DNA of 64,000 nt from positions 160,001 to 224,000 of the forward strand of contig OY970364.1 in NCBI GenBank assembly GCA_963718565.1, read 5' to 3'. A program made the translations under genes and the position numbers. Below are positions 18,095-63,932 of the stretch, one piece after another. Source of the DNA: an uncultured Verrucomicrobiae bacterium (lineage in GTDB: Bacteria > Chlamydiota > Chlamydiia > Chlamydiales > Rhabdochlamydiaceae). The notes beneath the pieces are model-generated. The model was not told the origin of the DNA and ran no database searches. It saw only the letters and a program-made list of their open reading frames with translations. Position 1 is the first letter of the stretch. Each line of letters begins with the position of its first letter.

Positions 18095-18625
18095 TTAGTA
18101 CTGCATGCAATTTCTTGCTGCTTGTAACGCTCTGAGTTCCGAAAGAGATCGAAATAAGATCTTTTCCAGAGTAATTTCATAGCGAGAAAGTAACGCTAGT
18201 TCATCGCCTTCAAAGCCCCCCAGTACTTCGATGATTTTTCCATTACCATAAGACTTTTGCTCGGCATGGTTGATCAGCATTGATTCCATTTGGGTTACTC
18301 TGGATAGCCTCCATGCTGCAGCTAGGGCTCGCTCCCAAAACAGCCTTTCTAAAAATCCTTGAGGTTGAAAATGGTCATAGAATTCAGTTTCAAGGCTTTC
18401 AAAGTCTCTTTTGGATTCACCATCGAGCAAGATTTGTTTGCTAAACACCCCATGTTTTAAGGCGTTTTTAGCAACAACTCCTCTACCTGCTTCTGTTTTG
18501 GGACCCGTGGATAGCTTGGCATTGTGGCGATTCGCATCGAATTGCTTCTGCGTGGAGTTCTTCTGATTTCCGATTTCTGATTTTTCTATGGAAATCGGAA
18601 AATCGGAAATTTGTGTGTTTATCAT
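18095..18625 (-). CDS. Hypothetical protein with N-terminal NRxNA...STGPKTxxG...NALKHG motif
   Basis: Motif read directly; translationally coupled to the primase gene. Confidence 0.7.
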   Translation of the reverse strand: MINTQISDFPISIEKSEIGNQKNSTQKQFDANRHNAKLSTGPKTEAGRGVVAKNALKHGVFSKQILLDGESKRDFESLETEFYDHFQPQGFLERLFWERALAAAWRLSRVTQMESMLINHAEQKSYGNGKIIEVLGGFEGDELALLSRYEITLEKILFRSLSELRALQAARNCMQY

Positions 18626-20337
18626 ATAAGTCCTTGGTTTTTAGCTTTTTTTATTCTTGTTTCGACCTGGGATTTAGTCAGGCCAGTTTTTTGCATAATT
18701 TTCTCAATTGTCAAACCTTCTTTAACAGCTTCTGCTACAGCGGAAACTTCAGCATCGATAGGAGCTTCACTCATTTCCCATTGCCACAATCCATCGTTCT
18801 GTTCTTTAAGTTGAACTTGGAAAGAAGCGGCAGCCTCTCCTGCAAAATGCCTTGTTTTTTCGAAAACGATCTCAAAATATGAACCTTGGTCAGAGCAGTA
18901 GCCTTGTGGCTGTCTAAGCAAGATCACGGTATCGAGAATGTCCTCTTTTTTACTTGTGCCTCGTTGCTGGCCGCCCTTGGCTGCATGATGGATAAAGAGA
19001 ACCGATTTGCCTCGTCGCCGCAGTTCTAGTGCCCAATCCTGTACCGGCTGCCAACTTTCGGCTTCGTTTTCAATTCCGCTGCGGAAAAGGGTGGACACGT
19101 TATCGATGATGATCAGATCACTGCCCTCGATAGATCGTTCCACGGAATCGCGTCCTTCTCTTGTTGAGAGGTCTGGCATCGGTCCTTCTTGAAGGTCTGG
19201 TGTGATCAAGCGGAGAAAATCGCAGCTTGGCAATTTTAAATCCTCGGTAACTGAAATTCGTCTTAATCGTTCTTGCATTGCAACCGCCGGCATTTCTCCA
19301 TCTATGTACAGCACTTTCCTGGGTTTTGGTGCATGCCATTTCAGAAATTTTCCGCCAGTTGCGACAGCATAAGCGATTCCAAGGGCGACGTGTGTTTTTC
19401 CGACTCCTCGTTTTGCATAAAGGAGACAAAGTCCTTGAGTGGGAAGGAAGGGAGCAAGAATCATTTCTCGTTCTGGAAGTTCCATATTCAAAAATTCATC
19501 CATTGAAACGACTCGAATTTTTTCTTTGGGTTGAGCGGGCGCATAGTCGGGGGTTCTGTCGATGATTTCAAGCAACTGTCCTGTCGTCTTTCCTTCTGCC
19601 AACCAATCGCTGATATCTTTTCCATGTGATTCTTGATATTCCAGTCCCGGTAAATCAACGACACGGAGACGTTTTACTTTTCCATAGAGATTTTTGCACA
19701 ACAGGTTGCGTCTTTCCAAGCCTGTTTTATCCATGTCGTAGAGAATGATAACATCGGCGTTCTTCAGGATTTGAGTGAATTCGTCGGTCCATGTGAGAGA
19801 TTCCGGCGAAGTGGTCGCGGTCAGGTTATACCCCGCAAGTTTATCGGCATCCTTTTCGCCTTCAACGAGGAAGATGAGTGACTTATCGGAGATCCCTTTG
19901 AGAACTTCGGGCAGTCGATAAAGAACTTTTCTGCATCCTTTTAAGCTCTTGATAACTTGGCCATTTTCGATAGTACGTTCAGAATAGAGGCTCTTTGCTT
20001 TTCCATCGAAGCCGGGTTCGATTCGAATTTTTCGATAGAGCTCTTGGCCATTCTCATCTTGGTAGGAATAAACGGTTCGTTTGGACCCAAGCTGTCCGTT
20101 TACTGGGCAAAAGAGTTCGGAAACCTGAATGCTGAGGCAGGCGCATACGTCTTCGATCGAGCATCCAGCAAAGCATTTTAGTAGGATTTTTCCGTCAATG
20201 CCTTCTGATATCGAAAGACTCGGATTTGAATCGTCATGAGCGGGACAGCAAGCTGAATATCCTGAGCTTGTTCGTTGTGCAGTTTTGCCCGTTCTAGACT
20301 GAAGGTGTCCTAAAAATTCATGAAGCTTCATTCTCAA
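18622..20337 (-). CDS. Primase-helicase (Zn-binding + TOPRIM + AAA_25/RepA-type helicase)
   Basis: CPAHDD...CFAGC, VEGEKD, YDMD, GKDISDW, AKRGVGKT, YIDGEM, IIDN, IHHAAK. Confidence 0.9.
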   Translation of the reverse strand: MRMKLHEFLGHLQSRTGKTAQRTSSGYSACCPAHDDSNPSLSISEGIDGKILLKCFAGCSIEDVCACLSIQVSELFCPVNGQLGSKRTVYSYQDENGQELYRKIRIEPGFDGKAKSLYSERTIENGQVIKSLKGCRKVLYRLPEVLKGISDKSLIFLVEGEKDADKLAGYNLTATTSPESLTWTDEFTQILKNADVIILYDMDKTGLERRNLLCKNLYGKVKRLRVVDLPGLEYQESHGKDISDWLAEGKTTGQLLEIIDRTPDYAPAQPKEKIRVVSMDEFLNMELPEREMILAPFLPTQGLCLLYAKRGVGKTHVALGIAYAVATGGKFLKWHAPKPRKVLYIDGEMPAVAMQERLRRISVTEDLKLPSCDFLRLITPDLQEGPMPDLSTREGRDSVERSIEGSDLIIIDNVSTLFRSGIENEAESWQPVQDWALELRRRGKSVLFIHHAAKGGQQRGTSKKEDILDTVILLRQPQGYCSDQGSYFEIVFEKTRHFAGEAAASFQVQLKEQNDGLWQWEMSEAPIDAEVSAVAEAVKEGLTIEKIMQKTGLTKSQVETRIKKAKNQGLI

Positions 20338-20555
20338 CTCTGGGCAAAAGCTGATGTGGATTTAGAAGATTGACTTTCAATCCAGGTGTCGAATAAGTCC
20401 ATGCGTAGGACTAGTCGTTTGCCAACCTTTCTCACGGCTTCTTGAAGTCCGTTGCGATGGCGGTAAAGAAGCAGATGGCGCATCTGCCCCATGGTGAACG
20501 GGTATCTGCCGCTTTTTACAATTTGTTGCGGCGACCAGTACTCAATATTATTCAT
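20334..20555 (-). CDS. Excisionase/AlpA-like small DNA-binding protein
   Basis: Small basic wHTH-like protein upstream of the primase; homologous to 50267-50464 and 62593-62886 (R.NGL...+++.++.L....F..W). Confidence 0.75.
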   Translation of the reverse strand: MNNIEYWSPQQIVKSGRYPFTMGQMRHLLLYRHRNGLQEAVRKVGKRLVLRMDLFDTWIESQSSKSTSAFAQS

Positions 20556-20686
20556 AAAATCTCCGTAAATCGGGTTTTTCTTGATCTGCGCCCAATTTTA
20601 ACGAAGGGTGCCGATTATTCGTCGGCACGGTGGTGGACAGTTTGTTGAAGAGTGGTAATTGGATAGCTTAACGATCTGAATAAGAA

Positions 20687-21727
20687 TTATTTAGGCTGAG
20701 TCCTATGATCGCCGAAATGATGAGGGTGGCTGAGTAACGTGACGTAAGTAATATTGCCATATTCTGGCTTTGGAGCGACGTTTTTCAAAGCGGTATCGAA
20801 GGTTCTGGTTAAACTACGGAAGGGGCGTTGAAGGATCGTTTCTCTTGGTTTTTTAGATGGTACGCGAGACAATGCATCAAGGAATTTAGCTACTCGGTGA
20901 GAAATCCTGATTTTTCGATCTCCAAATAGTGTTGGGACTAGCAGTGTTGGAAATTCACCGTCAAGATGAAGCGCAGTGGCTTTAGTTGCCCAAATTGTTT
21001 TCAAATTAACAGGCAATCGCAACCGAGAGCTTGTAAGGCAAAGCCAACAAAAACCCAAGCTCTCTGCTGCGGTGAGCTGAGCATTTGGGCGGCTATAACG
21101 ACATATTTTTGCCAATTCTACAAGAAGGTCACGTGCAGTTTCTTGAGGGATAGGATAGACTTCAGGTGCAATTTTTCTGGTAATTCTCCCATGACAGATA
21201 TCCATTTTTTCTGGGAAGATTTGCTCTAAGAATGCGATTTCTTCATTGGACAGGTTGCGCATATAGGCAAGAAAACTTTTGAAAGCACGCCATTCCAGTC
21301 TTGCCCCTTTTCCTTCTTCTTCTACTGCTTTGGCCATTCTAAGGACGTAGTCCAATAAAGTTTCTTTTTTGCGAGGCTTTTCAAGTTCAAAGTCCTCAAA
21401 GGGCTCGTAATAAGCGTCTGTGATCTCTAGCCATTTCTTCCAAGCTGCGATGCATTTTATTGCATCGCTTTTTGCAGTATCCGAGGAGATGGGTTTATCG
21501 AATAGCCACCGCTCTAATTCATTGATTTCTTTTACATCTGTTGCCCCATGAAGCCAGCATCGGGCATGCTTTTGATTCCAATTTTCTTCTGAAACAACAT
21601 CGAACCCTGGATTATCAATTTCCACTTGCCTCCAGAACTCTCTGATGTTCGTGAGATCAGTCTCAAGATCGTTTAAAATCTCTTTGGCGTTTGTGAGCGG
21701 GTCTTTTGCTGTACTCATAAAACTCAT
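20687..21727 (-). CDS. Hypothetical protein; C-terminus resembles a degenerate tyrosine-recombinase domain
   Basis: 346-aa ORF in the int-xis interval; C-terminal pattern shared with 50619-52061. Confidence 0.6.
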   Translation of the reverse strand: MSFMSTAKDPLTNAKEILNDLETDLTNIREFWRQVEIDNPGFDVVSEENWNQKHARCWLHGATDVKEINELERWLFDKPISSDTAKSDAIKCIAAWKKWLEITDAYYEPFEDFELEKPRKKETLLDYVLRMAKAVEEEGKGARLEWRAFKSFLAYMRNLSNEEIAFLEQIFPEKMDICHGRITRKIAPEVYPIPQETARDLLVELAKICRYSRPNAQLTAAESLGFCWLCLTSSRLRLPVNLKTIWATKATALHLDGEFPTLLVPTLFGDRKIRISHRVAKFLDALSRVPSKKPRETILQRPFRSLTRTFDTALKNVAPKPEYGNITYVTLLSHPHHFGDHRTQPK

Positions 21728-21728
21728 C

Positions 21729-22808
21729 TCATTCCTTGTCGCTCTGGGTTTCTAGCCGTTGCTTTGCATGCTCAATTGCTTTGTTCAGTTTCTCTCGGAG
21801 AACTGCTTTGGAAGGTAGGGCAGTCAAATATTCGGCAACGTGGATGCCGGCTCGATCGAGTTCAAGGAGTTCGATCTGCTCACTTTGTTTGCCGGTGCAG
21901 AGAATAAGTCCCAAAGGAGGATGCTCCTCAGGCTGGCGCTCATATCTGTCGAGCCAACGAAGGTATAGTTCCATTTGTCCTTTGTGTTCAGGCTTAAAAT
22001 CTCCGAGCTTTAATTCGATGGCAACCAATCGTTTTAGTTTTCTATGGAAAAAGAGGAGGTCGAGGTGAAAATCTGTGTCATCGATAGTCATCCGTTTTTG
22101 ACGAGCAAGAAAGCAAAAGCCTATTCCTAATTCTAGTAAAAACTGTTCAAGCTCTCGCATGATCGCATCTTCAAGATCCTTCTCAATGTACCGATCATCG
22201 AGTTTCAGAAATTCAAGCACATAGGGATCACGAAAGACGAGGTCAGGTGAAAGTTGGTCTTCTTTGCGGAGGGCATCGATCTCAGCTTGAGCAACCAGTT
22301 CTGGACGTTTTGACAGTGCTGTTCTTTCATAAAGCATCGAGTCGATTTTTTTGCTTAAGGTCCGAACATTCCACCGTTCGATTCGGCACATCTCGGCGTA
22401 AAAATCGCGCTTGATAGCATCCTTGATCGGAATGAGTAACCTGAAATGGGACCAACTTAATTGGTGGGTCAGCGACAAAATGACTTGCTGGTCAGGAAAG
22501 ACTTCAGCGAACTGTATCATCCGATGTAAGTTCTTCTCCAAGAACCCTTTGCCATAATCTGCCGTCAATTGTCGCCACAGTGTGGCGACAATCTTTTTCC
22601 CGTATTCGGCACGTTCATCCTTAGGGATTTCTTTGCTGATGCGAGCTCCTACATGCCAGTACAGTAAGGTTAACCCAGCATTGACCGTGGACGCGATTGA
22701 CTTGCGGGTCTGATCGATCATGTGCCGCAGATCTTCAAGTAAAGCAACTGGGACGGTCGTCACGAGTGCCTGGGGCTGCGGAGGGGTGAGTGATGTTTGA
22801 GGATTCAT
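21729..22808 (-). CDS. DUF1016/YhcG PD-(D/E)XK nuclease family protein
   Basis: Start MNPQ at 22808 overlaps the integrase stop; LYWHVG, LSWSHF, RDPYVLEFL, IELK motifs. Confidence 0.9.
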   Translation of the reverse strand: MNPQTSLTPPQPQALVTTVPVALLEDLRHMIDQTRKSIASTVNAGLTLLYWHVGARISKEIPKDERAEYGKKIVATLWRQLTADYGKGFLEKNLHRMIQFAEVFPDQQVILSLTHQLSWSHFRLLIPIKDAIKRDFYAEMCRIERWNVRTLSKKIDSMLYERTALSKRPELVAQAEIDALRKEDQLSPDLVFRDPYVLEFLKLDDRYIEKDLEDAIMRELEQFLLELGIGFCFLARQKRMTIDDTDFHLDLLFFHRKLKRLVAIELKLGDFKPEHKGQMELYLRWLDRYERQPEEHPPLGLILCTGKQSEQIELLELDRAGIHVAEYLTALPSKAVLREKLNKAIEHAKQRLETQSDKE

Positions 22809-23879
22809 AGAGAGTCTCCTTTGAGGATTTGGTCTGAGATTTGATTGCTGAATTGTTTTGTGACTTGGACATCCATGTGGGTGTAATGGAGCAGCATCGC
22901 TAGGGTGCGATGGCCTGTGGCAGTGGCCAGTTGGAGGTTGGAGGCGCCTTTTGCAGCGGCGTAAGTACAGAACGTATGGCGCATGTCGTGGGCTCGGCAA
23001 TTAGTGATATTGGCTCGTTGGAGGGCTTGCTGCCAAGCTTTCTTGATGTCGATTCGTCCGAATGCTGTTTTGCTGGCAAAGACGAGAGGTTTTTGGGGAT
23101 TTCGTCTCTTTGTAGAGGCATTGGAGTTCTTCGATGACGGGATCGCAGAGGGCGATGCTGCGGGGACGGCCATTTTTGGTTTCTTTGATGTAGGCGAGTT
23201 TGTTGTTGAAGTCGATATGTTTCCATTCGAGATTGAGAATTTCGCCTTGGCGGGCTCCTGTAGTAAGCGAAAGAAGGATGATGCAATAGAGGTAAGGGGA
23301 TTTGCTTCTTCGGGAAGCGGTAAGAAGGCGTGTGATCTCGTCTTCAGAAAGGACGCGGTCTCGGCCGGGGTTTTCTTTGAGTTTCATGAGGCGCAAGCGC
23401 GGGGTTTTCGCTGATCCAGCGGAGCTGGAGGGTGGCATAAGTGAGAAGGGAGGAGAGCGAGGCCATGTAGCGATTGGTAGTGGCAGCAGTTCGTTTAAGA
23501 CTTCTGTTGTGTGGGAGTGTCGGTGAGGAATTGCCGTTCCTTACCTAGCAGTTCGGGGGTGATGTGGACAAGGCCGTAGGAGCCAAGGCGTGATTTCCAA
23601 TAGTTGAGGTGGCGGAGAGTGTCATCGGCAGGAGCGATGATGTTCGAGTGCGCCGTCTTGGATGTAGCGTTCTGTGAGTTCGGCGAAGGTACGGATTTGA
23701 TTGTGTTGGTCAAATTTGAATTGACCGGCTTTGATTTGTCGTTCGACGTTTGAAGCCCAGTCATCGGCTTCTTGCTTGCGTTCGAAGTGATTGCAGACAG
23801 TAGGGTAGCCTTTGATGCGGACGACAGCGCGCCAGACGGTGGTGCCGTTTTCATTTTTGCGTTTGAAAATAGATGCCAT
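22805..23879 (-). pseudogene. Tyrosine integrase of element B, multiply frameshifted
   Basis: Pieces in different frames: MASIFKR... (23879), RHLNYWK, TGARQGE...KNG, AHDMRH...TGH...HYTH. Confidence 0.9.
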
Positions 23880-24047
23880 GATTCCAACCTCATGTTTTGA
23901 GAGATTTAGTTGGTTGGATGGCGCTGCTGGTTAAGATTATTCTTTGTTGCACCGCCATTGCACCGTGCGGCTACAATTTAAACTTGAACTTGATATTCGT
24001 TCAAGTTAATTGTGCGCAAGTGCAATGGAATGTGCTGGTTAAGAATG

Positions 24048-24097
24048 TGGGGCAAGCAGGACTTGAACCTGCGACCAGCGGGTTATGAGTCCGCAGC
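24048..24097 (-). repeat. att site: 3' half of a CAT-anticodon tRNA (copy 3)
   Basis: Reverse complement GCTGCGGA-CTCATAA-CCCGC-TGGTC-GCAGG-TTCAAGT-CCTGC-TTGCCCCA with a perfect T-stem. Confidence 0.92.
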
Positions 24098-24224
24098 ACC
24101 CGCGCCACTTCCCAGCAGCTAACTGCCCAGAATCATAGCGGAAAGCGCTCCTTTCCATCCATCGCGAACTATCGCCACTTATCGCGCTTTTTTGCATGCT
24201 AGTGGTCCACAAATGGTCCACAGA
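24098..24224. repeat. About 125-bp att-arm region, repeated at about 53382-53508
   Basis: CCCGCGCCACTTCCCAGCAGCTAACT...TGGTCCACAAATGGTCCACAGA follows both att copies. Confidence 0.9.
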
Positions 24225-32702: not shown

Positions 32703-32861
32703 AACTCACCTTACGCAAATCGGTAAAAATTTCTTGACAAGGCCTGTCTTTTTTTCGTAGTCTTGTTCAATTTTTTGGAGAAAAAATGAACAGACTACTC
32801 GATATCTATTCGGATTACTTGATTGCTCAGAATCAATATGCAACAGCAGTTGGTCTCTCAG
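32703..32861 (+). mobile_element. Left-end fragment of the IS701-like IS
   Basis: Identical to 38728-38886; truncated by an IS3. Confidence 0.9.
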
Positions 32862-47726: not shown

Positions 47727-47862
47727 TTTGGTTCTCCAATTTTATGCACCATGGCTGCGGTGCTGCTTTCTCCTTATTTCTCTACTCAACTCCCTCGCTA
47801 AAGTTGCTAAACTGCTAAAGCTTCATGGCCTTAGATAAAAAATCCTTAGCAGATTAGCAGGT

Positions 47863-50202
47863 TTAGCAGCTCTCCATATTTTGTGGAGGTTTAATCGTCC
47901 ACGCTTCCTTGCATTTTTTGTCATTGATGACGAGATTTGGAGTGGGGATGACCCACCCATGGCTTGCAAGGATGGACATGATCGTTCGAGCACGGTCGGC
48001 ATTCCTGATACCAAGAGAGAGGGGGCCATATTGGTAAATCGTGCTGAGTCCAACCTGTTTGTAGTTTTCTTTCCATAACCACTTGAGTAAGGAGGCTGCA
48101 CAAACGAGCTCTGGATTGATCGAGACAAATCCATGAATGCGTAGTCTCTCTGTGAAATAGAATTGGATAAGAATGATTGCTCTTTGGATGTACTCAGAGC
48201 TAATTTCTTCTACATCGGGATTTTCAATAAGTGCCAGAGTGCCGCTAAGCCGTAGAACATGTTCGGGTGCTTTACTGGCGAACCGGCGAATTGGGTGATA
48301 TGGTTTCCCCTCTGCCAGATCCTCTTCGTTTTTGTTATGAAAAGCGATCCAAATCTTTTTGGCATCGCTGCTTAGAGGGAGAAGGATTGGTGAGATTTCA
48401 TTCTTTGGATCAAGAGGTGAATTTTCCTTGGCATTCGCATCCAACAGGCGATTCATTGCGTCATTGAATCGTTTGATTGCGGGATCCGCAGAGAGATCTT
48501 CTTCGACATAGGCTCGACTTCCAGCCATAGACTGAGGAAACACAATCAGACAGCGAGGTAGGAACCCTTGCAAATCAAAGATGGGGTTACTCAGGAGTTG
48601 GCTGAGAACCACTTCTTGCATCATCAAGTGGAGAGAAAGTCTTTTTCCATAGAGGAGCATGTCACCATCGCCAGCCCTCATCCACGAAATTTCTTTACCA
48701 TCCCAAAGAGACGATAGCCCAGCCAACGTTTTTAATAGGTTGTCGCGATTCATAGCGTGCCCCCCAAAGAATCTTCCTCCCTCATCGCTAAACAAACCGA
48801 TACTAGGTTGGCCATCTGCAGAGAAGTATTTAACGATACCTTCGTAGGTGGGCTCTTCAGCAAGAACTAAGGGACGCAGGGGAGGTGCGGGAGGCGGTTC
48901 GGAAAAAGTCGAATCTGAGGAAGCACTTTTGATCCATTCTTTCTTCCTCGCTTCCCAGGCTTCCTTGTGGATCTGGAATTTTGGGTATTCTGTTCGATAG
49001 CAATCAGCTAACATTTTCTGCCAGGAGAATATCGGCTTTAAAGCTATTTTATCCGTGGCGCTCTTTCGATCCCCTGACTCTGCAATAGTGAGATAGAACT
49101 CCGAAAGAGGATTTTCTCGACCGTCGATGGTAATGTTTGCATGGGCTTGAGTTGCAAGTGAAGTTGCCGCTAGAACGCTCTGGGCGCATATGCTATCCGG
49201 TGCTTTGATAACTCTATGCATCGCTTGTGCGGCAGATCCGAGAATGGGGCCTAGCGCATCCATTGGAAAAGGCTGAGGAGATCCTATTTGACGATAGAGG
49301 GGAAGAGGGTCCACTGGACAATCACTTTCTATTCCTAGAAAAGTGATCAGATCACGGACTGTTTTCAATTCGCAATGCTTATGGAAACATTTAAATCCAT
49401 GGTCCGGATAGCCATTTGTGTTCGGTTCGTAATATTTTGTGCCTGTGTCTTGTTGGGAATGAAGCTGTGCCCATGGACATCGGATGCTCCAACATCCCTG
49501 TGGATGCGATTGTTTTTGGAGCAGCATCCCATGACGTTCGAGTGCTTCTAGAACAGGGTTATTTTTTGCCGATTCATTTGTGGAAATAGATGGCGTTGGG
49601 TTGGGAGAAAGTGAGATCCCAAACGCATCCAGGAATTGTTGTAGAGAAAAGGGTTGTTTGCCACTCTCTTGGATGATTTTAGTGAGAAAGGGATCTTGTT
49701 TTTGGTGGAGGAACCCAGGAAGACGCATGACCCTAGCAAGATCATGTACTTGGGGATCTCCCTGAAAAAAGCCGATTAGCTTTTTTTGGATGAGGGAAAA
49801 ATGTTGCAGTTCAATGCCTTCAACAACCCAATAAGCATGAAATCGACTGGGACTCGATTCAACGATGATGTGAGGAGATAAAGGAGCCGAAAAGATGGGT
49901 TCAAGAGGACTTCCATCAAGGTCGACAAAGACTGCTGTGACCTGAGTGATATTCTCTGTTTTGCGCCCTTTTCCATCGGTTTGATTGATTGTGACGAAAA
50001 TGCCCGCTCCCTGCTCTTGAAGTCGTATAAAATTGTTTGCGAATTCATCGAGTGTCCCGCAGAGAACTTGGGGCTTGACTAGCGTTTCGGAATTTTTCCG
50101 ATCGTTAAAGATTTGGAAGGCAAAAATAGATTCCTCATCCCGTGAAAGATGGCTTAAGAATCTTTTTGCCGTTGTGAGATCTTGCGAGTTATAATGGGTC
50201 AT
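47863..50202 (-). CDS. RepB-type primase + DUF3987 (YfjI-like) helicase
   Basis: GIFVTIN, FVDLD, ESSP..HAYW, RLPG, CPW..H...CFH..C, AESGDRKS, SDEGG, GFLPR. Confidence 0.87.
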   Translation of the reverse strand: MTHYNSQDLTTAKRFLSHLSRDEESIFAFQIFNDRKNSETLVKPQVLCGTLDEFANNFIRLQEQGAGIFVTINQTDGKGRKTENITQVTAVFVDLDGSPLEPIFSAPLSPHIIVESSPSRFHAYWVVEGIELQHFSLIQKKLIGFFQGDPQVHDLARVMRLPGFLHQKQDPFLTKIIQESGKQPFSLQQFLDAFGISLSPNPTPSISTNESAKNNPVLEALERHGMLLQKQSHPQGCWSIRCPWAQLHSQQDTGTKYYEPNTNGYPDHGFKCFHKHCELKTVRDLITFLGIESDCPVDPLPLYRQIGSPQPFPMDALGPILGSAAQAMHRVIKAPDSICAQSVLAATSLATQAHANITIDGRENPLSEFYLTIAESGDRKSATDKIALKPIFSWQKMLADCYRTEYPKFQIHKEAWEARKKEWIKSASSDSTFSEPPPAPPLRPLVLAEEPTYEGIVKYFSADGQPSIGLFSDEGGRFFGGHAMNRDNLLKTLAGLSSLWDGKEISWMRAGDGDMLLYGKRLSLHLMMQEVVLSQLLSNPIFDLQGFLPRCLIVFPQSMAGSRAYVEEDLSADPAIKRFNDAMNRLLDANAKENSPLDPKNEISPILLPLSSDAKKIWIAFHNKNEEDLAEGKPYHPIRRFASKAPEHVLRLSGTLALIENPDVEEISSEYIQRAIILIQFYFTERLRIHGFVSINPELVCAASLLKWLWKENYKQVGLSTIYQYGPLSLGIRNADRARTIMSILASHGWVIPTPNLVINDKKCKEAWTIKPPQNMESC

Positions 50203-50266: not shown

Positions 50267-50464
50267 TCATCTTCTTGCCTGTTTTTCGAGCCAAGCGATG
50301 AAGAGATCCCTGCGGACTAGTACTTTTCTCCCAACGCGACGAAGTGCTGGTGCAAGTCCGTTACGATGGGCATGGAGGATGTAGTACCTGAGCATCGGTA
50401 CCGTAAAACAAAAAGTGGGATCCGAAGCGATCTGCTTCACTGTGCAATATGTTTGATCAGTCAT
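50267..50464 (-). CDS. Excisionase/AlpA-like protein
   Basis: Homologous to 20334-20555 (HRNGL...RRVGRKVLVRRDLF..W). Confidence 0.75.
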   Translation of the reverse strand: MTDQTYCTVKQIASDPTFCFTVPMLRYYILHAHRNGLAPALRRVGRKVLVRRDLFIAWLEKQARR

Positions 50465-50618: not shown

Positions 50619-52061
50619 TTAAGATTTTCGTGGAAGATTAGAGGATTTCTCAACTAGCTGACGCTTGAGTTCTTGAAGTGAGATGGGGTCATGGTAAATT
50701 GGAATAGGATTTTCTCGCTGATCCCGCAGATGTTTTGGAAGCATTCTCAAATTCTTATGAGGGTGCGGGAAAAGAAGGAATGCTTCCGGTAAAGCAGGAG
50801 TATTCCCATGAGGAAGGATTTTTTCAGAGGCTCGTCTGAATCGTTCTGCAAGATTATCCATGGTCAGATTTGGAAACAATTTTTGTGGCCTTTTCAAAGG
50901 TTGATCTCCGATGTATTCCTTCAATAAATCAGCTAGCCCTTCCGAGTGCTCTATTTCTTCGTCATCTATCAGAAGTCCATTTTGAATAACGTCCTCTGTC
51001 GTCACTTCCAAAAGCCGCTTGATGGAATAGGAGCGAGTTCCATTTTGCGAAATGTAGACCATGATCCAAAGCAGCAGAACAATTTCTCCTTCGATATCAT
51101 GGTCTAAGGGATCTGCAATGAATTGATCAGCAAAGTGAAGGATATATTTCCCGAATGTATTTCGGTCAATTGCATAGCCCGATTTCCATCGAGAGGTAGA
51201 GGTAGTTTGTTGTTTAGATTGTTTAATTGAAACGAGCCCTTGCAGAAGGATCTCTTGCTTTTCCACACTCCATGTGACCCCCGAAAAAATCAGCTTACGA
51301 AGTTGGATCTTCCATAGTCTTTGAAAGTCCATGAAATCTCGCCTTTTTCCAGCAGTAATCGAATGAGACACCTGGCGGTAGGCTTCAGCCACGGAGATGC
51401 CTCCTTTGGGAGCAAATCTCTGGTTTTCTAGCGTTCTTCTTCTCACTTTGAGATCTTGCTTGAGATATTCTTTTATTGTTTGTAGATAATGGTAGTGCGC
51501 CCTTTGATGGAGATTCCGCATTACTGGTTCGAGATCTTTAGAATATTCATTAACAGCGCATAATTGATTGATCAGAGTGTGAGCTTTATTTTCTTTTTCG
51601 TACCATTCGATCCATTTGGACATCTCGGCTTTAGAGGCACAGAAGAGGAGCGCCTCTAATTTCTCCTCTTCGAGCTTACGAAGATTCTCCTCGGGGGGGA
51701 CGATTTGAACAGCCCAGGGTATATGCCAAATGACTTTTTTTGCTTCAGAGGGAAAGCAACGAATGCGACATTCCGGATAAAAGCGAGGGGTGAAAACCAT
51801 GCTGATGAGAGGAGCTGATGTGGCGGCCTCTCTTACCTTTTCATTGGGCGAGAATCTCTGTAAAACATATCGGTGGGTCTCCATCATGGTCTTTAATGCT
51901 CTTTCTGACATAAGCGGACGCCCAAGGATCAAATAAATTTCGGAAAAGAAAAAGTAAAGAACATTGGATTTTTCTGCGACCTTGGCATGAAAGTCTTCGA
52001 GATTTTGCAAGAGGGATCTGATCCCTCTCGCTAATTTTTGGTGTTTAGTCAGCGCCATCAT
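50619..52061 (-). CDS. Hypothetical protein; C-terminus resembles a degenerate tyrosine-recombinase domain
   Basis: 480-aa ORF overlapping the integrase stop; same slot as 20687-21727. Confidence 0.6.
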   Translation of the reverse strand: MMALTKHQKLARGIRSLLQNLEDFHAKVAEKSNVLYFFFSEIYLILGRPLMSERALKTMMETHRYVLQRFSPNEKVREAATSAPLISMVFTPRFYPECRIRCFPSEAKKVIWHIPWAVQIVPPEENLRKLEEEKLEALLFCASKAEMSKWIEWYEKENKAHTLINQLCAVNEYSKDLEPVMRNLHQRAHYHYLQTIKEYLKQDLKVRRRTLENQRFAPKGGISVAEAYRQVSHSITAGKRRDFMDFQRLWKIQLRKLIFSGVTWSVEKQEILLQGLVSIKQSKQQTTSTSRWKSGYAIDRNTFGKYILHFADQFIADPLDHDIEGEIVLLLWIMVYISQNGTRSYSIKRLLEVTTEDVIQNGLLIDDEEIEHSEGLADLLKEYIGDQPLKRPQKLFPNLTMDNLAERFRRASEKILPHGNTPALPEAFLLFPHPHKNLRMLPKHLRDQRENPIPIYHDPISLQELKRQLVEKSSNLPRKS

Positions 52062-53166
52062 CTACTCCTGGCGATGGATCTGAGGCGATGATCTCGCTCA
52101 AATTGGTTGTATTGACCAATTTCTCATAAACTTTTGTCGTCAATTGTTGTACGCTGGCTGCATCTGGATGGCAGTAACGAAGCAGTTGAGACAAAGTTCT
52201 GTGGCCTGTGGCGGCGGATAATTGAATATTAGAAGTTCCTGATACAGAAGCTATTGTAGCAAAACAGTGCCTCAAATCATGCACGCGGAAGTCTTCGATC
52301 GTTGCTTCTTTTAAAGCTTTTTCCCAAGGCTTGCGCAAAGTCAACTGACCAAAACGGGTTTTGCTTGCGAAAACCAAGGATTTTTCTGGATGCTTTTTGG
52401 CGAATAGATCCTTAAGCATTTCCAGTACATCACCAACGATGGCCAAGACACGTGGGCGTCCATTTTTTGTGCTTTTCAAATGGATCAAACCATTTTCAAG
52501 ATCCACTGCGTTCCACTGTAGACTCAATAATTCGCCGCTTCTTGCACCGGTTGTGAGAGCCAAAATGACGAATGGGAGAAGCAGCCTGTTGAAACTTTTT
52601 GCACATGCTTTCAGTAGACGCGAGCACTCATCAGGAGAGAGAGTTCGGTTTCTGCCCTCTGCTTCCTTAAGCTTTTTAACGCGGGACATTGGATTTGATG
52701 AAATCCACTCACACTCTTTCACTCCATGGCTTAGGACGGCTGAAAGAGAAGCAAGGTAGCGATTGACGGTAGCCTCAGTGCGCTTCTTTCCTTTTGGAAG
52801 AACTTCATCAAGGAGTTCCCTCCGGTGTCTTGAGATGAGATCTGAAGAAACATGGTTGAGAGTGAATTTCCCCAGTTTCAATTTCCACCAGTTGAGATGG
52901 CGGAGCACATCTTCTGCACTTTTGATGGAGGGAAGAATATCTTGAATGTAGCGGTCGATAAGCTCAGCTAAAGTGTGCTTTTGTCTGCACTTCTCAGGAA
53001 AGTACAGACCTTGTCTTCGCTTTGCCTCTTCCTGAATTGCCCAGTCTTTAGCTTCCTGATGTGTTGGAAAAGTTTTATATTGGATTGGAAGCCCGTCATC
53101 AGGACGGATCATGACGCGGTAGCTGTTAGTACCGTTTTTATTTTTTCTTTTTTGTATTGTTGCCAT
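52045..53166 (-). CDS. Tyrosine integrase
   Basis: TGARSGE, KNG, VHDLRH, TGH, RYCH; adjacent to the att at 53331. Confidence 0.95.
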   Translation of the reverse strand: MATIQKRKNKNGTNSYRVMIRPDDGLPIQYKTFPTHQEAKDWAIQEEAKRRQGLYFPEKCRQKHTLAELIDRYIQDILPSIKSAEDVLRHLNWWKLKLGKFTLNHVSSDLISRHRRELLDEVLPKGKKRTEATVNRYLASLSAVLSHGVKECEWISSNPMSRVKKLKEAEGRNRTLSPDECSRLLKACAKSFNRLLLPFVILALTTGARSGELLSLQWNAVDLENGLIHLKSTKNGRPRVLAIVGDVLEMLKDLFAKKHPEKSLVFASKTRFGQLTLRKPWEKALKEATIEDFRVHDLRHCFATIASVSGTSNIQLSAATGHRTLSQLLRYCHPDAASVQQLTTKVYEKLVNTTNLSEIIASDPSPGVDDGAD

Positions 53167-53330
53167 CTGTTCATCTCCATTTGTGGTTTACGTGAACAGA
53201 CAGTTCTGATGGGATGAGCTGACACGCATAAGATGTCAGCGTGCCGTATAAGTGCCATAAGGTAAAATGTTAAGTGAAAAATTCACATAACTTTCATTCT
53301 AACTTATTGCAGAACAAGCACTTAAAAATG

Positions 53331-53379
53331 TGGGGCAACCTGGACTTGAACCAGGGACCGACGGGTTATGAGTCCGCTG
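53331..53379 (-). repeat. att site: 3' half of a CAT-anticodon tRNA (copy 4)
   Basis: Reverse complement CAGCGGA-CTCATAA-CCCGT-CGGTC-CCTGG-TTCAAGT-CCAGG-TTGCCCCA with a perfect T-stem. Confidence 0.92.
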
Positions 53380-53603
53380 ACGCCCGCGCCACTTCCCAGC
53401 AGCTAACTCCCCGAAATCATAGCGGAAAGCACCCCTTTCCATCCATCGCAAACTATCGCCATTTATCGCCCTTTTTTGTATGCCAGTGGTCCACAAATGG
53501 TCCACAGACAAAAAATTGAATTCTATGAATGGGCTTTCTTGTATATGATGAATACCCTTAACGAGAGCTAAATATTCGAACCGGGAAAACGAGGGACTAG
53601 CGC

Positions 53604-59361: not shown

Positions 59362-59383
59362 GTTTTCTAGAGAGGAACTAAAA

Positions 59384-59641: not shown

Positions 59642-60637
59642 TAGCCAAAAAAATTATCATGGAGAATATGTGTGAATGCCATGCCAGCATGTTTATTTTG
59701 GGCAAATGAGGGTTGACTGAGGGTGTATGAATCTAACTCCGCCTGATCGCGTAAATCCGATTCTTGAATTTCAGTCTCTTATTGTTTTTCTGGCTGTTCA
59801 ATATTTTCAGCTGTTCGATATATATTGAACAGTTGAATTAAGTGAACAGACAGCATCTATGGTTTTTGAGAGTCAAAGTTCTGCCTCTATCCACCGACCA
59901 TCTCTGTCAAAATCTATAATTCGATTTTGAAGATCGGCTCAAAGACCTCTTGAAAGACATGTGTTTTGGGATCTAGTTGGTAGAGTTTTCCAGGGCGTTT
60001 TGCAATCGTCTTCTGTAAGCTTGTCTCGATATTTGTAATCGAGCCTAGAATCAATGCATTACGCTTTTCAAAAGCCTGCTGATCATGAGGCGGATAAGCC
60101 ACCGCGCAAATAGGGCGCAGCTCTCCAGCTGCTTTGCTTCCCATAATCAAACGGGTATGCATCTCAGCGTCAACCATGTCCTCAAACTCCTTAAAATGCG
60201 AACGGAACTCCAAGTCATAGTAGCCAACTTGATCGTCGACGATTTTTCCTATGGGGAGCTCTATGCCCTCTTCCCAAAATTGGAGCCAGAAACCCAGTTG
60301 TCTTTGTCTAATCAGCTTGAGAGAAAGTCCTATTGGGTTAACGCCGCATTTTCAACTTCTTCTTTGTAAACCCAATGTATTCGAAAAAGAGATAACAGGA
60401 TTGAATCGGCCGGAATCTTCGCCCAAATGTTTTTATAAACGGATCATGTAGATCATTCCAAGTTTGCGGAATCTCCATTAGAGATCTAACTACAGGATTA
60501 TCAAAATAAATCAATTCCATCACGGATTCCATAGGGAAAAAGTGAAATTTTACACTGACGCCATTTTTCGTTCCAACAGTTTGCAATAGAATTCGATCGT
60601 TTACAACTAAACTCGTGTTATAACAATAGGAGCAAAT

Positions 60638-61774
60638 ATGGGACGGAAAGAAAGCCTCGAGAAGGCGGAAAATGATCTCAGAGGAATTATCGTGAGGACG
60701 CATAGGCATTGCAAAACCTATCGAGTGCGCATTCGGATGAAGGGCGGTCAGTGTTTTGACAGGTCGTTTAGATCGAAGACTTTGGCTAAAAAATGGAAGA
60801 GAGATATGGAGTCGGCAATCGAGCATGATCGGTATGAATTCACGAATCCTGCAACCAAGCACACTCTTGCGGATTTGATTGACCTCTACATTGAGAGAGT
60901 GCTGCCTGGAAAGCCACGGAATGCCAAGAATGTTTTTCGGCACCTGACTTGGTGGAAGGAGGAACTTGGGCATTTGTTGTTAGCTCAAGTGCGGCCTAGC
61001 ATAATCGCAGAAAAAAGGGATGAGCTGCTTGCGGGCTTGGTCAGGAGCGGAAAGCTGCGCTCTCCTACGACGGTGGTGCGCTATTTGAGCAGCTTATCTC
61101 ATGTCTTTTCAAAAGCAGTTAAAGAATGGGAGTGGATGAGAGAGAATCCGGTTTTTAAGATTGAAAAGCCCAAGCAGGCGCAAGGCAGAAAGCGGGTATT
61201 AACCGAAGAGGAGCAGCAAAGGCTTTTGCAATCATGCCAAGAGAGCGGATCGAAAGACTTGTTTTTGATCGTTGCTCTTGCCCTAGGAACGGGTATGCGA
61301 AAAGGCGAAATAATGGGGCTTAGATGGAGAAATATGCAGTTGGGAGAACCCACAGGAACGATTGTGCTCGAAAGAACGAAGAATGGTCGTTCAAGGTCTG
61401 TTTTGATTACCGGCTTGTTGTTAGAGCTTTTACAGGAACGACGGAAACAACAGTGCACTGATAGCTTGGTCTTTCCATCTCCCAATTATCCCAACCAACC
61501 TATTGATATTCGATCTGCTTGGGAAAAAGCTTTGCAAAAAGCTGGAATAGAAGGATTTGTTTTCCATGGATTGCGTCATCAGGCGGCTTCTCAAGCAGCA
61601 ACGATTGAAAACAGCCCCTTGGTGATCGGAGAGTTGCTCGGCCACCAGACCCTTCAGATGACCAGGCATTACGTTCATTTGCCAAGCGCTCATATGCACA
61701 CGATGGTCGAAGCACTTCAATCAAAAATTTTTCAAAACTATCAGGAGGGCAGCCATGCACAACTTAGAAAATAA
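60638..61774 (+). CDS. Tyrosine integrase (closest to 8330-9460)
   Basis: TGMRKGE, KNG, FHGLRH, LGH, HYVH; shares KHTL, AKNV.RHL.WWK and PIDIRSAWE with the element A integrase. Confidence 0.93.
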   Translation: MGRKESLEKAENDLRGIIVRTHRHCKTYRVRIRMKGGQCFDRSFRSKTLAKKWKRDMESAIEHDRYEFTNPATKHTLADLIDLYIERVLPGKPRNAKNVFRHLTWWKEELGHLLLAQVRPSIIAEKRDELLAGLVRSGKLRSPTTVVRYLSSLSHVFSKAVKEWEWMRENPVFKIEKPKQAQGRKRVLTEEEQQRLLQSCQESGSKDLFLIVALALGTGMRKGEIMGLRWRNMQLGEPTGTIVLERTKNGRSRSVLITGLLLELLQERRKQQCTDSLVFPSPNYPNQPIDIRSAWEKALQKAGIEGFVFHGLRHQAASQAATIENSPLVIGELLGHQTLQMTRHYVHLPSAHMHTMVEALQSKIFQNYQEGSHAQLRK

Positions 61775-62477
61775 AACTCTTACGGCATTGTGGAGACCAG
61801 AGCTGCTTAGCGATGAGGAAATGCACGAATGCTTGAAGGAAACGTGCTGGACTGCCAGAAGAGCCGCTTATTATGTCCTGGGCTTGAAAATCCCTGAGCT
61901 AAGTAGCCTTGAGGAAGAGAAAAGGCTTTGCCCTGATTTTGAAAAGTACTACGAGCTTTTCAAAAGCTGTTTTGAAGAGGGAAGAATTGCGGTCCATTCG
62001 TTTTGTTCAGAATATGGCAAGACTGTTCGGACTGCCTTGCCTGTCGATTGGTTGAAGCTAGTCCATAGGGGACGGCTGAAAGATGATGCCATCAATGACA
62101 AAGAGGTAAAGCGAGAAGGTCTGTATGTCGCTCCTTTGCTTACAGAAGCTTGGCTGCTTTTGCAAGGGAAAGCAGTCTTCGCCAAAAGGCGACCTGCTCA
62201 AGAAAGGGACGATAAGCTTTTCGCTTGGAGTGCTGCTAGAAAGCTGCGCAAGGATTTTTCTCAGTTGTCCAACCGTCAAATGGCACAGATCATCCACAAG
62301 CATTGCTCGAAGGTGCAGAAATATCCCTTCAAGACCGTTTACGGCTGGGTCATCGATTCAGCCATCCCCCTGAATGAAGAGCCTTCGCAAAATAGGCGAG
62401 ATAGAAATGGCCGTCCTAAAAAAGACAGCTATCAGAAGCTCTCTGTCGATTTCTCCTCCTATTTTAATCATTTGTAA
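61755..62477 (+). CDS. Hypothetical protein (possible C-terminal HTH)
   Basis: GGAGG RBS; coupled to the integrase and sitting in the int-xis slot. Confidence 0.6.
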   Translation: MHNLENKTLTALWRPELLSDEEMHECLKETCWTARRAAYYVLGLKIPELSSLEEEKRLCPDFEKYYELFKSCFEEGRIAVHSFCSEYGKTVRTALPVDWLKLVHRGRLKDDAINDKEVKREGLYVAPLLTEAWLLLQGKAVFAKRRPAQERDDKLFAWSAARKLRKDFSQLSNRQMAQIIHKHCSKVQKYPFKTVYGWVIDSAIPLNEEPSQNRRDRNGRPKKDSYQKLSVDFSSYFNHL

Positions 62478-62592
62478 CTCACTGCTACTCAACGTATTTT
62501 ACGGTTTTTCCACCGACGCCATTTTTTCATGGCGATAGGTCGCCGTAAAATGCGGTTATTAAATTCAAACTGCAATAGCAGAGGAGTGCGAA

Positions 62593-62886
62593 ATGAAAAA
62601 CGATAGATCAAAAAATACAGACGAAGTGGCCATAGAGCCAAAACAGACCCGGTTTATTCCTGTGTCGAAATGGAATGAGTTTCATGAGTGGCCTCCAGTC
62701 GGCGGCATGCGCCACTTGATCTTTTTTCGAAACGAAAATGGATTTGCTAAGGTCTTAAAGCGTCCTAATCGCACCTGGCTCATCGATGAGAAGGCATTCT
62801 TCAAGTGGGTGTCAGAGAAAAAGTACAGACCCCGCAAAAAGGAGTCAGAGATCCAGGAAAACTCTAAAATCGCAGTACAGCCATGA
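62593..62886 (+). CDS. Excisionase/AlpA-like protein
   Basis: MRHLIF.RNENGF...WLIDEKAFFKW, homologous to the other two. Confidence 0.72.
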   Translation: MKNDRSKNTDEVAIEPKQTRFIPVSKWNEFHEWPPVGGMRHLIFFRNENGFAKVLKRPNRTWLIDEKAFFKWVSEKKYRPRKKESEIQENSKIAVQP

Positions 62887-63932
62887 TAACTTCCGAAGGA
62901 TTCGTAAAACTTTATCGAGAGGGGCTTGCACTTTTAGAACTAAGTCTTCCAGCTTTCGCGTTATTGACGCAGATTGCTTTGCGTGCAAACCGGATGGATC
63001 CCGCTTATTCAATCTATCAACTCAAGGCTAACGAAGCACTCGTTGGCGATCATAAAAAGATTGGTTTGTCCAGGCAGCAATACCGTGATGCGGTACTGAG
63101 ACTTGAAGCACACGGCCTTGCAACTTTTCGAAAAACCAATCAAGGGACTATTGCAGTTCTCACTAACAAAGCCATTTTTGACATCAATGCTGAATCGGAT
63201 GAAGGGCCTATAAAGGCGTGCACAGCCTTAGAAAAAGAACCAATTTACAGCCAAGCGAGAACCATTCATCAACCATTGGAGAACCAAAAAGAAACCACTT
63301 TGGAACCATCAAAAGAACCAGCAGATTTGTCAATGAAAAATCGAGAAAAAGAACCATCCGAAGAACCAGTTGACAACCACCAAAGAACCATAAGAGAACC
63401 GGATAGAAACCAATCGGGAACCAAACCAGAACCACTAACAAAGAAAGAAGAAAAAGAAAAAAGAGCTGCAGCAGCTTATTCACGCACCATTTACAAATGC
63501 CTGGATGGGTTGGATTTGAGCGATCAGGAGAAGAGATCCCTGATGTGCTATAGCGAACATCGTGTGGCTCATGCTGCGGAATTTGTGAGAAGAAAGCACA
63601 ATGTCGACAGCCCCATCGGGCTGATGATGTGGGTTTGTCAACAGCCTAGCCTACCTGAGCTTCCCAAGGAAAATCGAAAAAGCATGACTCCTCAACAAAA
63701 GCTTGCCTGGGAGTACAACCAATTTTTTAGCAGCAATGGCTATACTGCTCAAGCAAAGCAAAATGAGGAAAAGATCCCCAATGATCGAATGGTGATTTTA
63801 GAACAGGGGCAACTTATGCCGATTACGCTAAACCATCCCCTTCAGATCTTGCAGGAAGATTTTCGAAAGTCCAAAGAGGAAATTTTGAAAAGCCAGAGGA
63901 TAGTTCGAGGACTGCAAAGTGATAAATTGTAA
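62883..63932 (+). CDS. Phage-type replication initiator with internal iterons
   Basis: GFVKLYR, wHTH GLSRQQYRDAVLRLEAHGL, low-complexity linker encoded by many GAACCA repeats. Confidence 0.7.
   Translation: MITSEGFVKLYREGLALLELSLPAFALLTQIALRANRMDPAYSIYQLKANEALVGDHKKIGLSRQQYRDAVLRLEAHGLATFRKTNQGTIAVLTNKAIFDINAESDEGPIKACTALEKEPIYSQARTIHQPLENQKETTLEPSKEPADLSMKNREKEPSEEPVDNHQRTIREPDRNQSGTKPEPLTKKEEKEKRAAAAYSRTIYKCLDGLDLSDQEKRSLMCYSEHRVAHAAEFVRRKHNVDSPIGLMMWVCQQPSLPELPKENRKSMTPQQKLAWEYNQFFSSNGYTAQAKQNEEKIPNDRMVILEQGQLMPITLNHPLQILQEDFRKSKEEILKSQRIVRGLQSDKL
63233..63445 (+). repeat. Cluster of GAACC(A) repeats, putative replication origin
   Basis: More than ten GAACCA/AACCA units inside the initiator gene, followed by an A-rich tract. 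Confidence 0.6.

Follow-up and report, generated by a model that had tools for sequence, protein, structure and literature searches.

Satellite elements of the PICI/SaPI type (phage-inducible chromosomal islands and Staphylococcus aureus pathogenicity islands) and P4-like satellites are organized around an integrase, a gene for AlpA or a regulator, and a primase-helicase beside which lies an iteron origin. A comparable plan of an integrase, an AlpA/regulator-type gene and a primase-helicase recurs in the elements considered here, found in a stretch of 64,000 nucleotides (the window, bases 160001-224000) of a single-contig genome of 2,284,058 bp with 43.6% G+C; their core proteins, however, include no terS, ppi/cpm, sid/psu/delta or capsid genes when compared to Pfam, PHROGs and NCBIfam. 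As homologues of the element proteins come from sources named Rhabdochlamydiaceae bacterium, Simkania sp., Candidatus Protochlamydia phocaeensis and Candidatus Neptunochlamydia, the host is an environmental member of the Chlamydiota, in agreement with the probable chlamydial host named in an earlier reading of the window from its letters alone (hereafter the original prediction).

The overall design of these elements is not new, being shared by two described groups. The first comprises the phage-inducible chromosomal minimalist islands (PICMI) of Vibrionaceae which, according to the passages on their organization in Barcia-Cruz et al. 2024 (PMC10803314), consist of int, an int-overlapping gene (iolg, drawn from many unrelated families), an alpA-like gene, a DUF3987/DUF5906 primase and one or two small genes; they are small, lie next to fis, carry defence cargo, lack packaging and capsid-remodelling genes and have virulent helper phages. 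Excision of PICMI115 depends on each of the integrase, iolg and alpA, and its replication on the DUF3987-type primase; the authors' model of such an island is the colocalization of an integrase, an AlpA protein (PF05930 or PF12728) and a primase (PF13148 or PF19263) (PMC10803314, same passages). The second group comprises the tycheposons of Prochlorococcus, for which the architectural part of the preprint (bioRxiv 10.1101/2020.12.28.424599) gives a tRNA-targeting tyrosine (rarely serine) recombinase, flanks of partial tRNAs, cargo for local adaptation or defence, growth of islands by repeated integration, and a cargo type devoid of capsid and conjugation genes. Fusions of archaeo-eukaryotic primases (AEP) to DUF927, DUF3987 or RepA ATPases in tRNA-integrated elements are likewise general knowledge (as outlined in PMC5862659).

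At least eight related cores are present in the 2.28-Mb Chlamydiota genome, and 12 related loci were found in other genomes. The common order is a tyrosine integrase, a gene in second position that overlaps the integrase (slot 2), a small DNA-binding-like protein (slot 3), a replication gene (slot 4), often a HGGxSTG-type protein, and then a variable cargo consisting in the main of anti-phage defence; PADLOC identifies Kiwa, type I restriction-modification (R-M), PDC-S02, PDC-S05, PDC-S27, PDC-S57, an AbiLi/AriA-like ATPase and a cyclic oligonucleotide-based antiphage signalling system (CBASS). We regard these cores as belonging to a single family of elements of environmental Chlamydiota that are small and integrative, probably replicate themselves and do not transmit themselves, a reading to which we assign a probability of about 0.7. 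Full-text literature searches revealed no description of such elements in Chlamydiota, and a literature search none of the HGGxSTG domain. What is new lies in the details: the phylum of the host, an array of this size, the wide exchange of replication modules, a recombinase-like slot-2 protein, the HGGxSTG end gene and a minimal member of 3.45 kb.

As far as the published organization of PICMI goes, the gene order, the int-overlapping gene (by 4-20 nt here), DUF3987 in core 2 and DUF5906 in core 5 are held in common, as are small size, defence cargo and the lack of genes for packaging or capsid remodelling. In contrast, the sites used here are tRNA 3' halves or T-rich sequences and not fis-adjacent (fis itself was not searched for), the host belongs to the Chlamydiota, replication genes are of many more kinds, the Pfam match of the alpA-like gene stays below the cut-off, and an HGGxSTG end gene and a 106-kb tandem array are added. 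A helper phage, induction and concatemer packaging would be putative for the present elements. Rows for Chlamydia and Legionella in those parts of the PICMI supplements that mention them derive from an AlpA structure search, not from lists of elements, and were discarded as occurrences. The tycheposon architecture, as the preprint outlines it, recurs here in full and partial tRNA flanks, an integrase that points inward from one end, an adjacent replication module, cargo and tandem islands. This likeness is one of architecture only, since tycheposon membership is defined there by a lineage-specific recombinase clade and hallmark profiles; host and habitat also differ, and the architectural part of the preprint does not mention slot-2 or HGGxSTG genes.

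Gene order and exchange of replication genes

The original prediction had recognized three cores of this order in the window, and the open reading frame (ORF) listing together with Pfam bears them out, details of core 1 excepted. Core 2 lies on the reverse strand. Its tyrosine integrase (52045..53166, 373 aa, intact; Phage_integrase PF00589, 91.4 bits, and Int_N) is followed by a slot-2 protein of 480 aa (50619..52061) overlapping the integrase stop by 14-17 nt, by a putative AlpA/Xis-like slot-3 protein of 65 aa (50267..50464; HTH_17 E 0.0011, 19.6 bits, cut-off 27) and by a replication gene of 779 aa (47863..50202), in which Pfam and PHROG identify a RepB'-type AEP primase and a DUF3987 helicase-like ATPase (DUF3987 2.8e-79, PF13148 267 bits; RepB_primase 1.2e-11), as had been read from the sequence. 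At the 3' end of this gene (47797..47870), three (T)GCTAAA and three TTAGCAG repeats are arranged inversely around a 17-nt spacer. This block of three direct and three inverted 7-nt repeats is invariant in four orthologous elements and would, by analogy, constitute the origin, an operator being the other candidate function. The core continues with a conserved 71-aa protein without assigned family (47511..47726; 83-85% identity in the orthologous loci L026 and L027, 43% in L028) and ends in a Cys-rich HGGxSTG-domain protein of 124 aa (47146..47520; NCBIfam NF041373, 55.2 bits, cut-off 29), which matches the phage protein family PHROG 6177 at 3.6e-6. The STG[PA]KTxxG motif said to close two of the cores before the cargo begins is present, as LSTGAKTQEG in this protein and as LSTGPKTEAG in the corresponding protein of core 1.

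Core 1, also on the reverse strand, departs from the original description at its integrase end. The integrase (about 22750..23893) is a pseudogene with several frame breaks, represented by split ORFs and tblastn matches in five pieces, and a YhcG/DUF1016 PD-(D/E)XK nuclease gene (21729..22730; Pfam), a candidate defence gene (PADLOC PDC-S02, 4.8e-128), sits between this remnant and slot 2, where the integrase had been placed directly before slot 2. The slot-2 protein (20687..21727, 346 aa) has a paralogue of 29% identity at genome 688960-690108, and the 73-aa putative AlpA/Xis-like slot-3 protein (20334..20555) is recognized by alignments and blastp. The 571-aa replication gene (18622..20337) encodes a DnaG-type Zn-ribbon/Toprim primase fused to an AAA_25 (RepA/DnaB-like) ATPase. 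The proposed combination of TOPRIM and AAA_25 thus holds, with AAA_25 strong in Pfam (4.2e-29) and the DnaG Zn-ribbon (1.8e-4) and Toprim (6e-3) below their cut-offs; PHROG families for DNA primase (5e-28) and primase/helicase also match, and a paralogue 58% identical lies at genome 1072016. The last gene (18095..18625) is an ORF of 176 aa with the STG motif and 137 homologues, all unnamed and from chlamydial sources, with no NCBIfam HGGxSTG match at E<=0.01. A relationship of this protein to the 211-aa gene that precedes the STG gene of core 7 was ruled out for want of similarity. In the broken core-1 integrase the last 90 codons are in frame with the next ORF, that of YhcG (window 21729-23000); in an intact relative at genome 692.4 kb the integrase and YhcG overlap by 4 nt.

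Core 3, on the forward strand, consists of four genes in an element of 3.45 kb (60547..64000, with its right end at 64001, one base outside the window): a tyrosine integrase of 378 aa (60638..61774; Pfam; 39% identical to that of core 2), a slot-2 protein of 240 aa without family (61755..62477), which overlaps the integrase by 20 nt and matches unnamed Atlas clusters of 211-227 aa (score 0.93-0.95), a slot-3 protein of 97 aa (62593..62886; alignments and blastp) and a slot-4 protein of 349 aa (62883..63932), predicted to have an N-terminal winged helix, a disordered linker and a helical C-terminal domain. The slot-4 protein has 67 homologues, exclusively from chlamydial sources, and no Pfam, PHROG or NCBIfam match. 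A specific fold relative was sought and rejected, as only generic winged-helix proteins were retrieved (Foldseek E>=0.016, VIA Z<=7.4) and the C-terminal domain was barely covered. Since neither a family match nor a specific structural relative was found, the label of a phage-type initiator, given to it originally, is unsupported, and its position would at most make it a putative initiator. The iterons reported there reduce to a 22-nt repeat of 2.3 copies with 75% matches at 63350-63400, within the coding sequence for the low-complexity linker.

Paralogous integrases 31-95% identical occur in the genome, ten of full length, all with unchanged catalytic motifs, and three broken. Beyond the window, five further cores of the same order were found. 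Core 4 (genome 237-245 kb, slot 2 of 247 aa) is split by an insertion sequence (IS) and has a DUF927 helicase in slot 4, with a weak partial match to the model of the staphylococcal cassette chromosome (SCCmec) helicase Cch1 (49.5 bits, cut-off 700). In core 5 (687-693.5 kb, slot 2 of 382 aa) slot 4 is a DUF5906 protein (PF19263, 90.6 bits) and YhcG is split by an IS, while core 6 (1052.6-1059.6 kb, slot 2 of 356 aa) has an 821-aa NrS-1-like prim-pol and an IS-split integrase. Core 7 (953.9-959.9 kb, slot 2 of 369 aa) is intact, with a 698-aa slot-4 protein without family, followed by a 211-aa gene and an 83-aa STG-like gene; also intact is a second copy of core 3 (262.0-265.4 kb, slot 2 of 240 aa). 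The eight cores hence contain seven kinds of slot 4: Toprim+AAA_25, RepB'+DUF3987, winged-helix (in two copies), DUF927, DUF5906, NrS-1-like prim-pol and the 698-aa protein. The decayed members are core 1 and the copies at 237-245, 687-693 and 1053-1060 kb. Identical IS copies (DDE_5/DDE_Tnp_1, and a 608-aa DDE_Tnp_1 transposase) occur across the islands, with identical pairs in the window at 2642-3283 and 38994-39636 and at 32703-32861 and 38728-38886; as such copies interrupt integrase, YhcG and DUF927 helicase genes, the IS activity is recent.

A profile search of Chlamydiota genomes with the slot-2 family, proposed along with the original prediction, extends this pattern. Scanning of species-representative genomes with an 8-row alignment of close core-2 slot-2 members gave 12 loci, in metagenome-assembled genomes (MAGs) labelled Chlamydiota, Chlamydiales, Parachlamydiales and Anoxychlamydiales, in three labelled Verrucomicrobiota, Verrucomicrobia or Verrucomicrobiae, and in unclassified MAGs. 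The integrase lies directly upstream of the slot-2 homologue in all 12, and a tRNA gene upstream in nine (six Met, two Phe, one Asn), the other three contigs ending before that flank. Three loci (L026, L027 and L028) are orthologues of the whole of core 2, with 75-92% protein identity for five of the six genes and 43-85% for the 71-aa gene. On the conserved integrase/slot-2/helix-turn-helix (HTH) backbone elsewhere, four replication kinds are met: RepB'+DUF3987 (five loci), DUF5906 (two), Toprim+AAA_25 (one; 62% identical to the core-1 gene, on a core-2-type backbone) and prim-pol+DUF3987 (one). The RepB'+DUF3987 genes of non-orthologous loci are diverged, and related loci end in either type of STG gene. 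The suggestion that the replication gene differs from core to core thus applies to this genome and across the 12 loci, and the occurrence of one backbone with different replication genes is direct evidence for module exchange. Among 401 sampled genomes of the phylum the slot-2 family is present in 26 (this genome included), patchily over several families.

Proteins between the integrase and the replication gene

The slot-2 proteins overlap the integrase stop by 17 nt in core 2, 20 nt in core 3, 11 nt at genome 243864/243874, and 14 and 4 nt in others, start codons being taken from the longest ORF. The original view of a single kind of protein of 240-480 aa does not hold, as no mutual BLASTP similarity is found and at least four unrelated-looking groups can be distinguished. 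The core-1 and core-2 proteins have a C-terminal domain in common (hhalign E 4.2e-4 over 146 columns, probability 34%). The proteins of cores 6 and 7 were ruled out as members of the core-2 family, giving no profile match, and the alignment of three short slot-2 proteins, including one from Legionella, was unconvincing as evidence of kinship. A local integrase hidden Markov model gave only marginal matches to slot-2 proteins.

The core-2 slot-2 family is represented by 116 clusters in a library of 1.84 billion proteins. An AlphaFold2 model of the core-2 protein, from a 43-row alignment, was obtained with a predicted local distance difference test score (pLDDT) of 92.3 and a predicted template modelling score (pTM) of 0.86, and its best Foldseek matches are Cre, XerH, the Tn1549 integrase and XerA, with weak E-values from 0.03. 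In VIA, residues 290-459 superimpose on Cre, XerH, HP1 Int and Tn1549 Int with Z 7.0-7.5 (138-151 residues aligned, root-mean-square deviation 3.6-4.9), a range below 8 that the tool itself rates as middling; tyrosine recombinases or topoisomerase IB fill the top 30 rows, followed by a phage repressor-antirepressor complex at Z 5.0 and a first clearly unrelated structure at Z 3.9. An independent language-model lead (Atlas) gives "Tyr recombinase domain", ResT/TelK and Integrase_1. Because the VIA rows are consistent and this lead is independent, the modelled C-terminal domain likely has the catalytic fold of tyrosine recombinases and topoisomerase IB. Of the catalytic set R-K-H-R-H/W-Y, the 43 family members keep only H433 and R439, with no conserved first Arg, Lys or terminal Tyr, and none of the 43 has a Pfam integrase match. 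A predicted complex of the integrase and the slot-2 protein scored 0.00, which is evidence neither way. The fold gives an idea for the integrase-overlapping genes of minimalist satellites, namely that their products may act as inactive, recombinase-like partners of the integrase. The small slot-3 proteins are homologous, as had been proposed (core 1 and core 2 are 37% identical; core 3 is reached by blastp at E 7e-7 and 6e-6).

Attachment sites, the tandem array and the 3.45-kb element

For most members the site of integration is a tRNA 3' half (Met, Phe or Asn); core 3 inserts at short T-rich sites instead. Two tRNA-Met genes called in the window by ARAGORN prove to be attachment-site hybrids, in which a conserved island end is joined to a tRNA-Met 3' half; one scores 30.9 bits against the Rfam tRNA model (cut-off 29) and the other falls below threshold, and both share only the 3' 51-54 nt with the sole full-length tRNA-Met of that type (genome 271579-271653), immediately beyond which guaA and guaB are found. 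Copies of the 3' half occur at genome 165062, 169583, 184044, 213326, 230595 and 245090, in addition to the true tRNA, where the repeat lies at 271576, the first four corresponding to window positions 5051, 9574, 24039 and 53322, and the 22-nt tRNA 3' end occurs four times in the window as against none in 100 shuffles. An integrase gene or remnant follows every copy on the same strand, except the outermost at 165062. About seven islands thus lie head to tail in the region from 165 to 271.6 kb, a 106-kb array built by repeated integration into one tRNA-Met.

Two islands of the array have core 1 and core 2 as their integrase-proximal ends. The core-1 island (window 9629-24039, 14.4 kb) extends from a partial tRNA-Met 3' half serving as its right attachment site, attR (9574..9629, reverse strand; found by repeat family and pattern search), to the tRNA-Met 3' half at 24039..24114 (reverse strand), which ARAGORN calls as tRNA-Met and which, fused to a non-tRNA 5' part, is the left attachment site (attL) of island 5. 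Its cargo (9888..18026; Pfam and PADLOC) comprises Kiwa (KwaA/KwaB), type I R-M (HsdR/S/M), a Cas4-like PD-(D/E)XK nuclease and T5orf172/PDC-S57. The attL of the core-2 island is the tRNA-Met 3' half at 53322..53398 (reverse strand), adjoined at 53383-53508 by the conserved end of the next island. This end is a 125-nt sequence with four copies in the genome, 89-92% conserved (window 24099-24224 and 53383-53508; genome 245143-245269 and 860172-860339), which lies just upstream of the tRNA-half attachment (att) sites at the integrase-distal end of the islands. Within it are GTGGACCA, twice as a direct repeat, and three GCGAT repeats spaced at about 10 nt, so that it may be an attachment-site arm; the att repeat of the orthologous L026 element lacks it. 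In that orthologue tRNA-Met marks one boundary and a 47-54-nt repeat of the tRNA 3' half the other, which gives 9.1 kb as the size of an intact unit.

Within the island array, 39 nt from the last core-2 gene, a complete thiamine operon is found (window 40157-47107), with a thiamine pyrophosphate riboswitch at 40157-40253 (Rfam 73.9 bits) and genes for an NMT1/THI5-like protein, ThiD, a ThiO-like oxidase, ThiG, two ThiE-like proteins, ThiF and a ThiL-like protein. At window 29257-31156 a MerR-HTH/serine-resolvase N-terminal fragment precedes a TnpB/Cas12f-like OrfB gene, an IS607-type arrangement. A different element, with a large serine recombinase, a MerR/HTH_17 protein and a type I R-M system, occupies a tRNA-Asn at genome 1066-1078 kb; as an IS-interrupted primase-helicase 58% identical to that of core 1 and an STG-motif protein are also part of it, the replication/STG module is common to tyrosine- and serine-recombinase elements.

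The core-3 element begins with ATTTTACACTGACGCC and ends with GGGATTTT. Its second copy in the genome aligns over 3,463 bases at 92.8% identity and has unrelated flanks, two other species of the genus hold the same four genes with identical edges of homology (genome 220548 and 223992-224001), and in a fourth genome the element occupies the site of the window copy. At the left end the sequence is (A/T)TTTT(A/C)CAC(T/C)GACGCC, at the right end GGAG(G)ATTT(T); both junctions have a short T-rich repeat and no tRNA, which suggests a short crossover site of low specificity. Coverage and circles after induction had been named originally as a check, and in contigs from public metagenome runs, four in number and each of a different study, coverage rises at the left boundary of core 3 and falls at the right, the host flanks being barely covered, and three different sequences adjoin the left end; no circle, concatemer or go-back joint was present in these assembled contigs, which are unable to show rare forms. 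Beside the second copy, at genome 260066-262016, lies a CBASS pair of a cyclase (6e-113) and a patatin phospholipase effector (4e-160; both PADLOC). The distal end of the island that also contains core 3 holds a gene for an RHS-repeat protein of 1832 aa (window 53604-59641), behind which come two small Cys-rich ORFs, one of them matching Cys_rich_CPCC.

Mobility, competing explanations and wider occurrence

In keeping with the original prediction, no capsid, terminase, tail, relaxase or type IV secretion system (T4SS) gene was found among the window ORFs scanned. [quoted passage not shown] None of the 12 related loci lies in a recognizable prophage or ICE within the available flank, and the 55 proteins downstream of the cores in 11 of them contain no capsid, terminase, portal, tail, relaxase or T4SS families but include YhcG nucleases, MmeI, helicase/nuclease pairs, RhuM and acetyltransferases. 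Given the parallel with PICMI115, the integrase, the slot-2 protein and the small protein would jointly excise the element as a circle, which the replication protein would amplify from the repeat-bearing origin; the move to a new cell would need a vehicle that the element does not encode, such as a phage particle, conjugation or DNA uptake.

Several observations weigh against a family of active elements of this kind. No excised circle or empty site was seen in the assembled contigs, which do not show rare forms. As the slot-2 groups look unrelated, their common function is assumed from position, and core-3 slot 4 is at most a putative replication protein. The AlpA/Xis assignment of slot 3 is weak: Pfam HTH_17 (PF12728, one of the AlpA families of the PICMI model) reaches only two of nine members, at best with E 0.0011 and 19.6 bits against a cut-off of 27, and the family profile gave no match to PDB sequences at E<=10; kinship to the MerR/HTH_17 protein of the same genome was also considered and dropped, hhalign giving no match. 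Frameshifts or IS elements disrupt four of the eight cores, so that present-day activity in this genome is uncertain, and the 29-kb core-2 island, whose own attR was not identified, holds IS elements and the thiamine operon and may be composite.

The original prediction had taken the cores for satellites or hitch-hiking elements; a real element family with an integration/excision backbone stands, while satellite status is an inference only, with neither a helper nor a packaging gene in evidence. That these are true phage satellites of the PICMI kind, induced and packaged, perhaps as concatemers, by an undescribed and probably virulent chlamydial phage, is a minor possibility in our judgement. 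It would explain the PICMI-like core order of int, int-overlapping gene, alpA-like gene and DUF3987/DUF5906 primase, the match of the 124-aa HGGxSTG protein to a phage protein family, and the defence-rich cargo, which resembles that of known satellites and implies phage pressure on the host; as PICMI lack packaging genes and have virulent helpers, the absence of capsid and terminase genes from element and host is compatible with it. However, a scan of IMG/VR viral contigs, by a method that finds close relatives only, confirmed none for either the slot-2 family or the slot-4 protein of core 3, the contigs of the four metagenome runs contain no concatemer or circle joint, and islands of 14-29 kb with metabolic operons resemble cargo shuttles. 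Moreover, the only phages of chlamydiae known to us are small single-stranded DNA microviruses, of which the Phage_F search, with its silent control, gave no sign.

Somewhat less probable are integrative plasmid-like or mobilizable elements, replicating as small circles and moved by conjugation in trans or by DNA uptake. The autonomous replication genes and the conserved repeat block are in line with such a life, as are core 3, which consists only of integration and putative replication genes, and a RepB'-type primase, which the outline in PMC5862659 gives as typical of mobilizable plasmids such as RSF1010. Against this, the genome encodes no relaxase (PF03432, PF08751), coupling protein or F-type TraC detectable by the searches above, no partition genes are seen in the cores, and a search of 72,556 plasmid records found no homologue of the slot-4 protein of core 3; integrase matches in the plasmid collection are generic, the best being in an apparent chromosomal island. 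The weakest alternative, that the cores are decayed prophage or ICE remnants without independent life, would account for the broken core-1 integrase and the three other cores split by IS elements but is highly improbable in the face of compact intact orthologues elsewhere (75-92% protein identity, 43% for the 71-aa protein of L028, and one att-bounded at 9.1 kb), of core-3 ends that are identical and sharp across species and sites, and of 55 downstream proteins in 11 related loci without a structural or conjugative one among them.

The reading of the cores as small integrative elements that probably replicate but do not transfer themselves bears on the biology of the host. Few routes of gene exchange are known for the obligate intracellular chlamydiae, and such islands, with their 106-kb stacking, swapped replication modules and defence genes (Kiwa, R-M, CBASS and others), would be one of the chief origins of genomic plasticity among the environmental representatives. 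The abundance of defence genes in the cargo speaks indirectly for exposure of these bacteria to undescribed phages. A bolder proposal, in which environmental chlamydiae host genuine minimalist satellites moved by undiscovered phages, the 3.45-kb element is the smallest known and the dead-recombinase fold of slot 2 explains the iolg excision cofactor of PICMI-type satellites, is speculative and in our opinion improbable.

Some relatives carry other taxonomic labels. The loci L028, L029 and L035, in MAGs labelled Verrucomicrobiota, hold core-2 orthologues with up to 92% protein identity, and represent either mis-binned chlamydial contigs or transfer within the Planctomycetes-Verrucomicrobia-Chlamydiae (PVC) group. 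In Legionella adelaidensis, an island annotated only as hypothetical genes (NZ_LR134418.1, 235.8-243.5 kb) differs in the phylum of its host and in having extra genes between the small protein and the primase, but contains an integrase 39-48% identical to those described here with a 219-aa gene behind it, a 73-aa slot-3 homologue (hhalign probability 98.6%; 40% identity by tblastn with core-3 slot 3), a toprim protein and an HGGxSTG-domain protein. Related cores in Legionella point to exchange among amoeba-associated bacteria.

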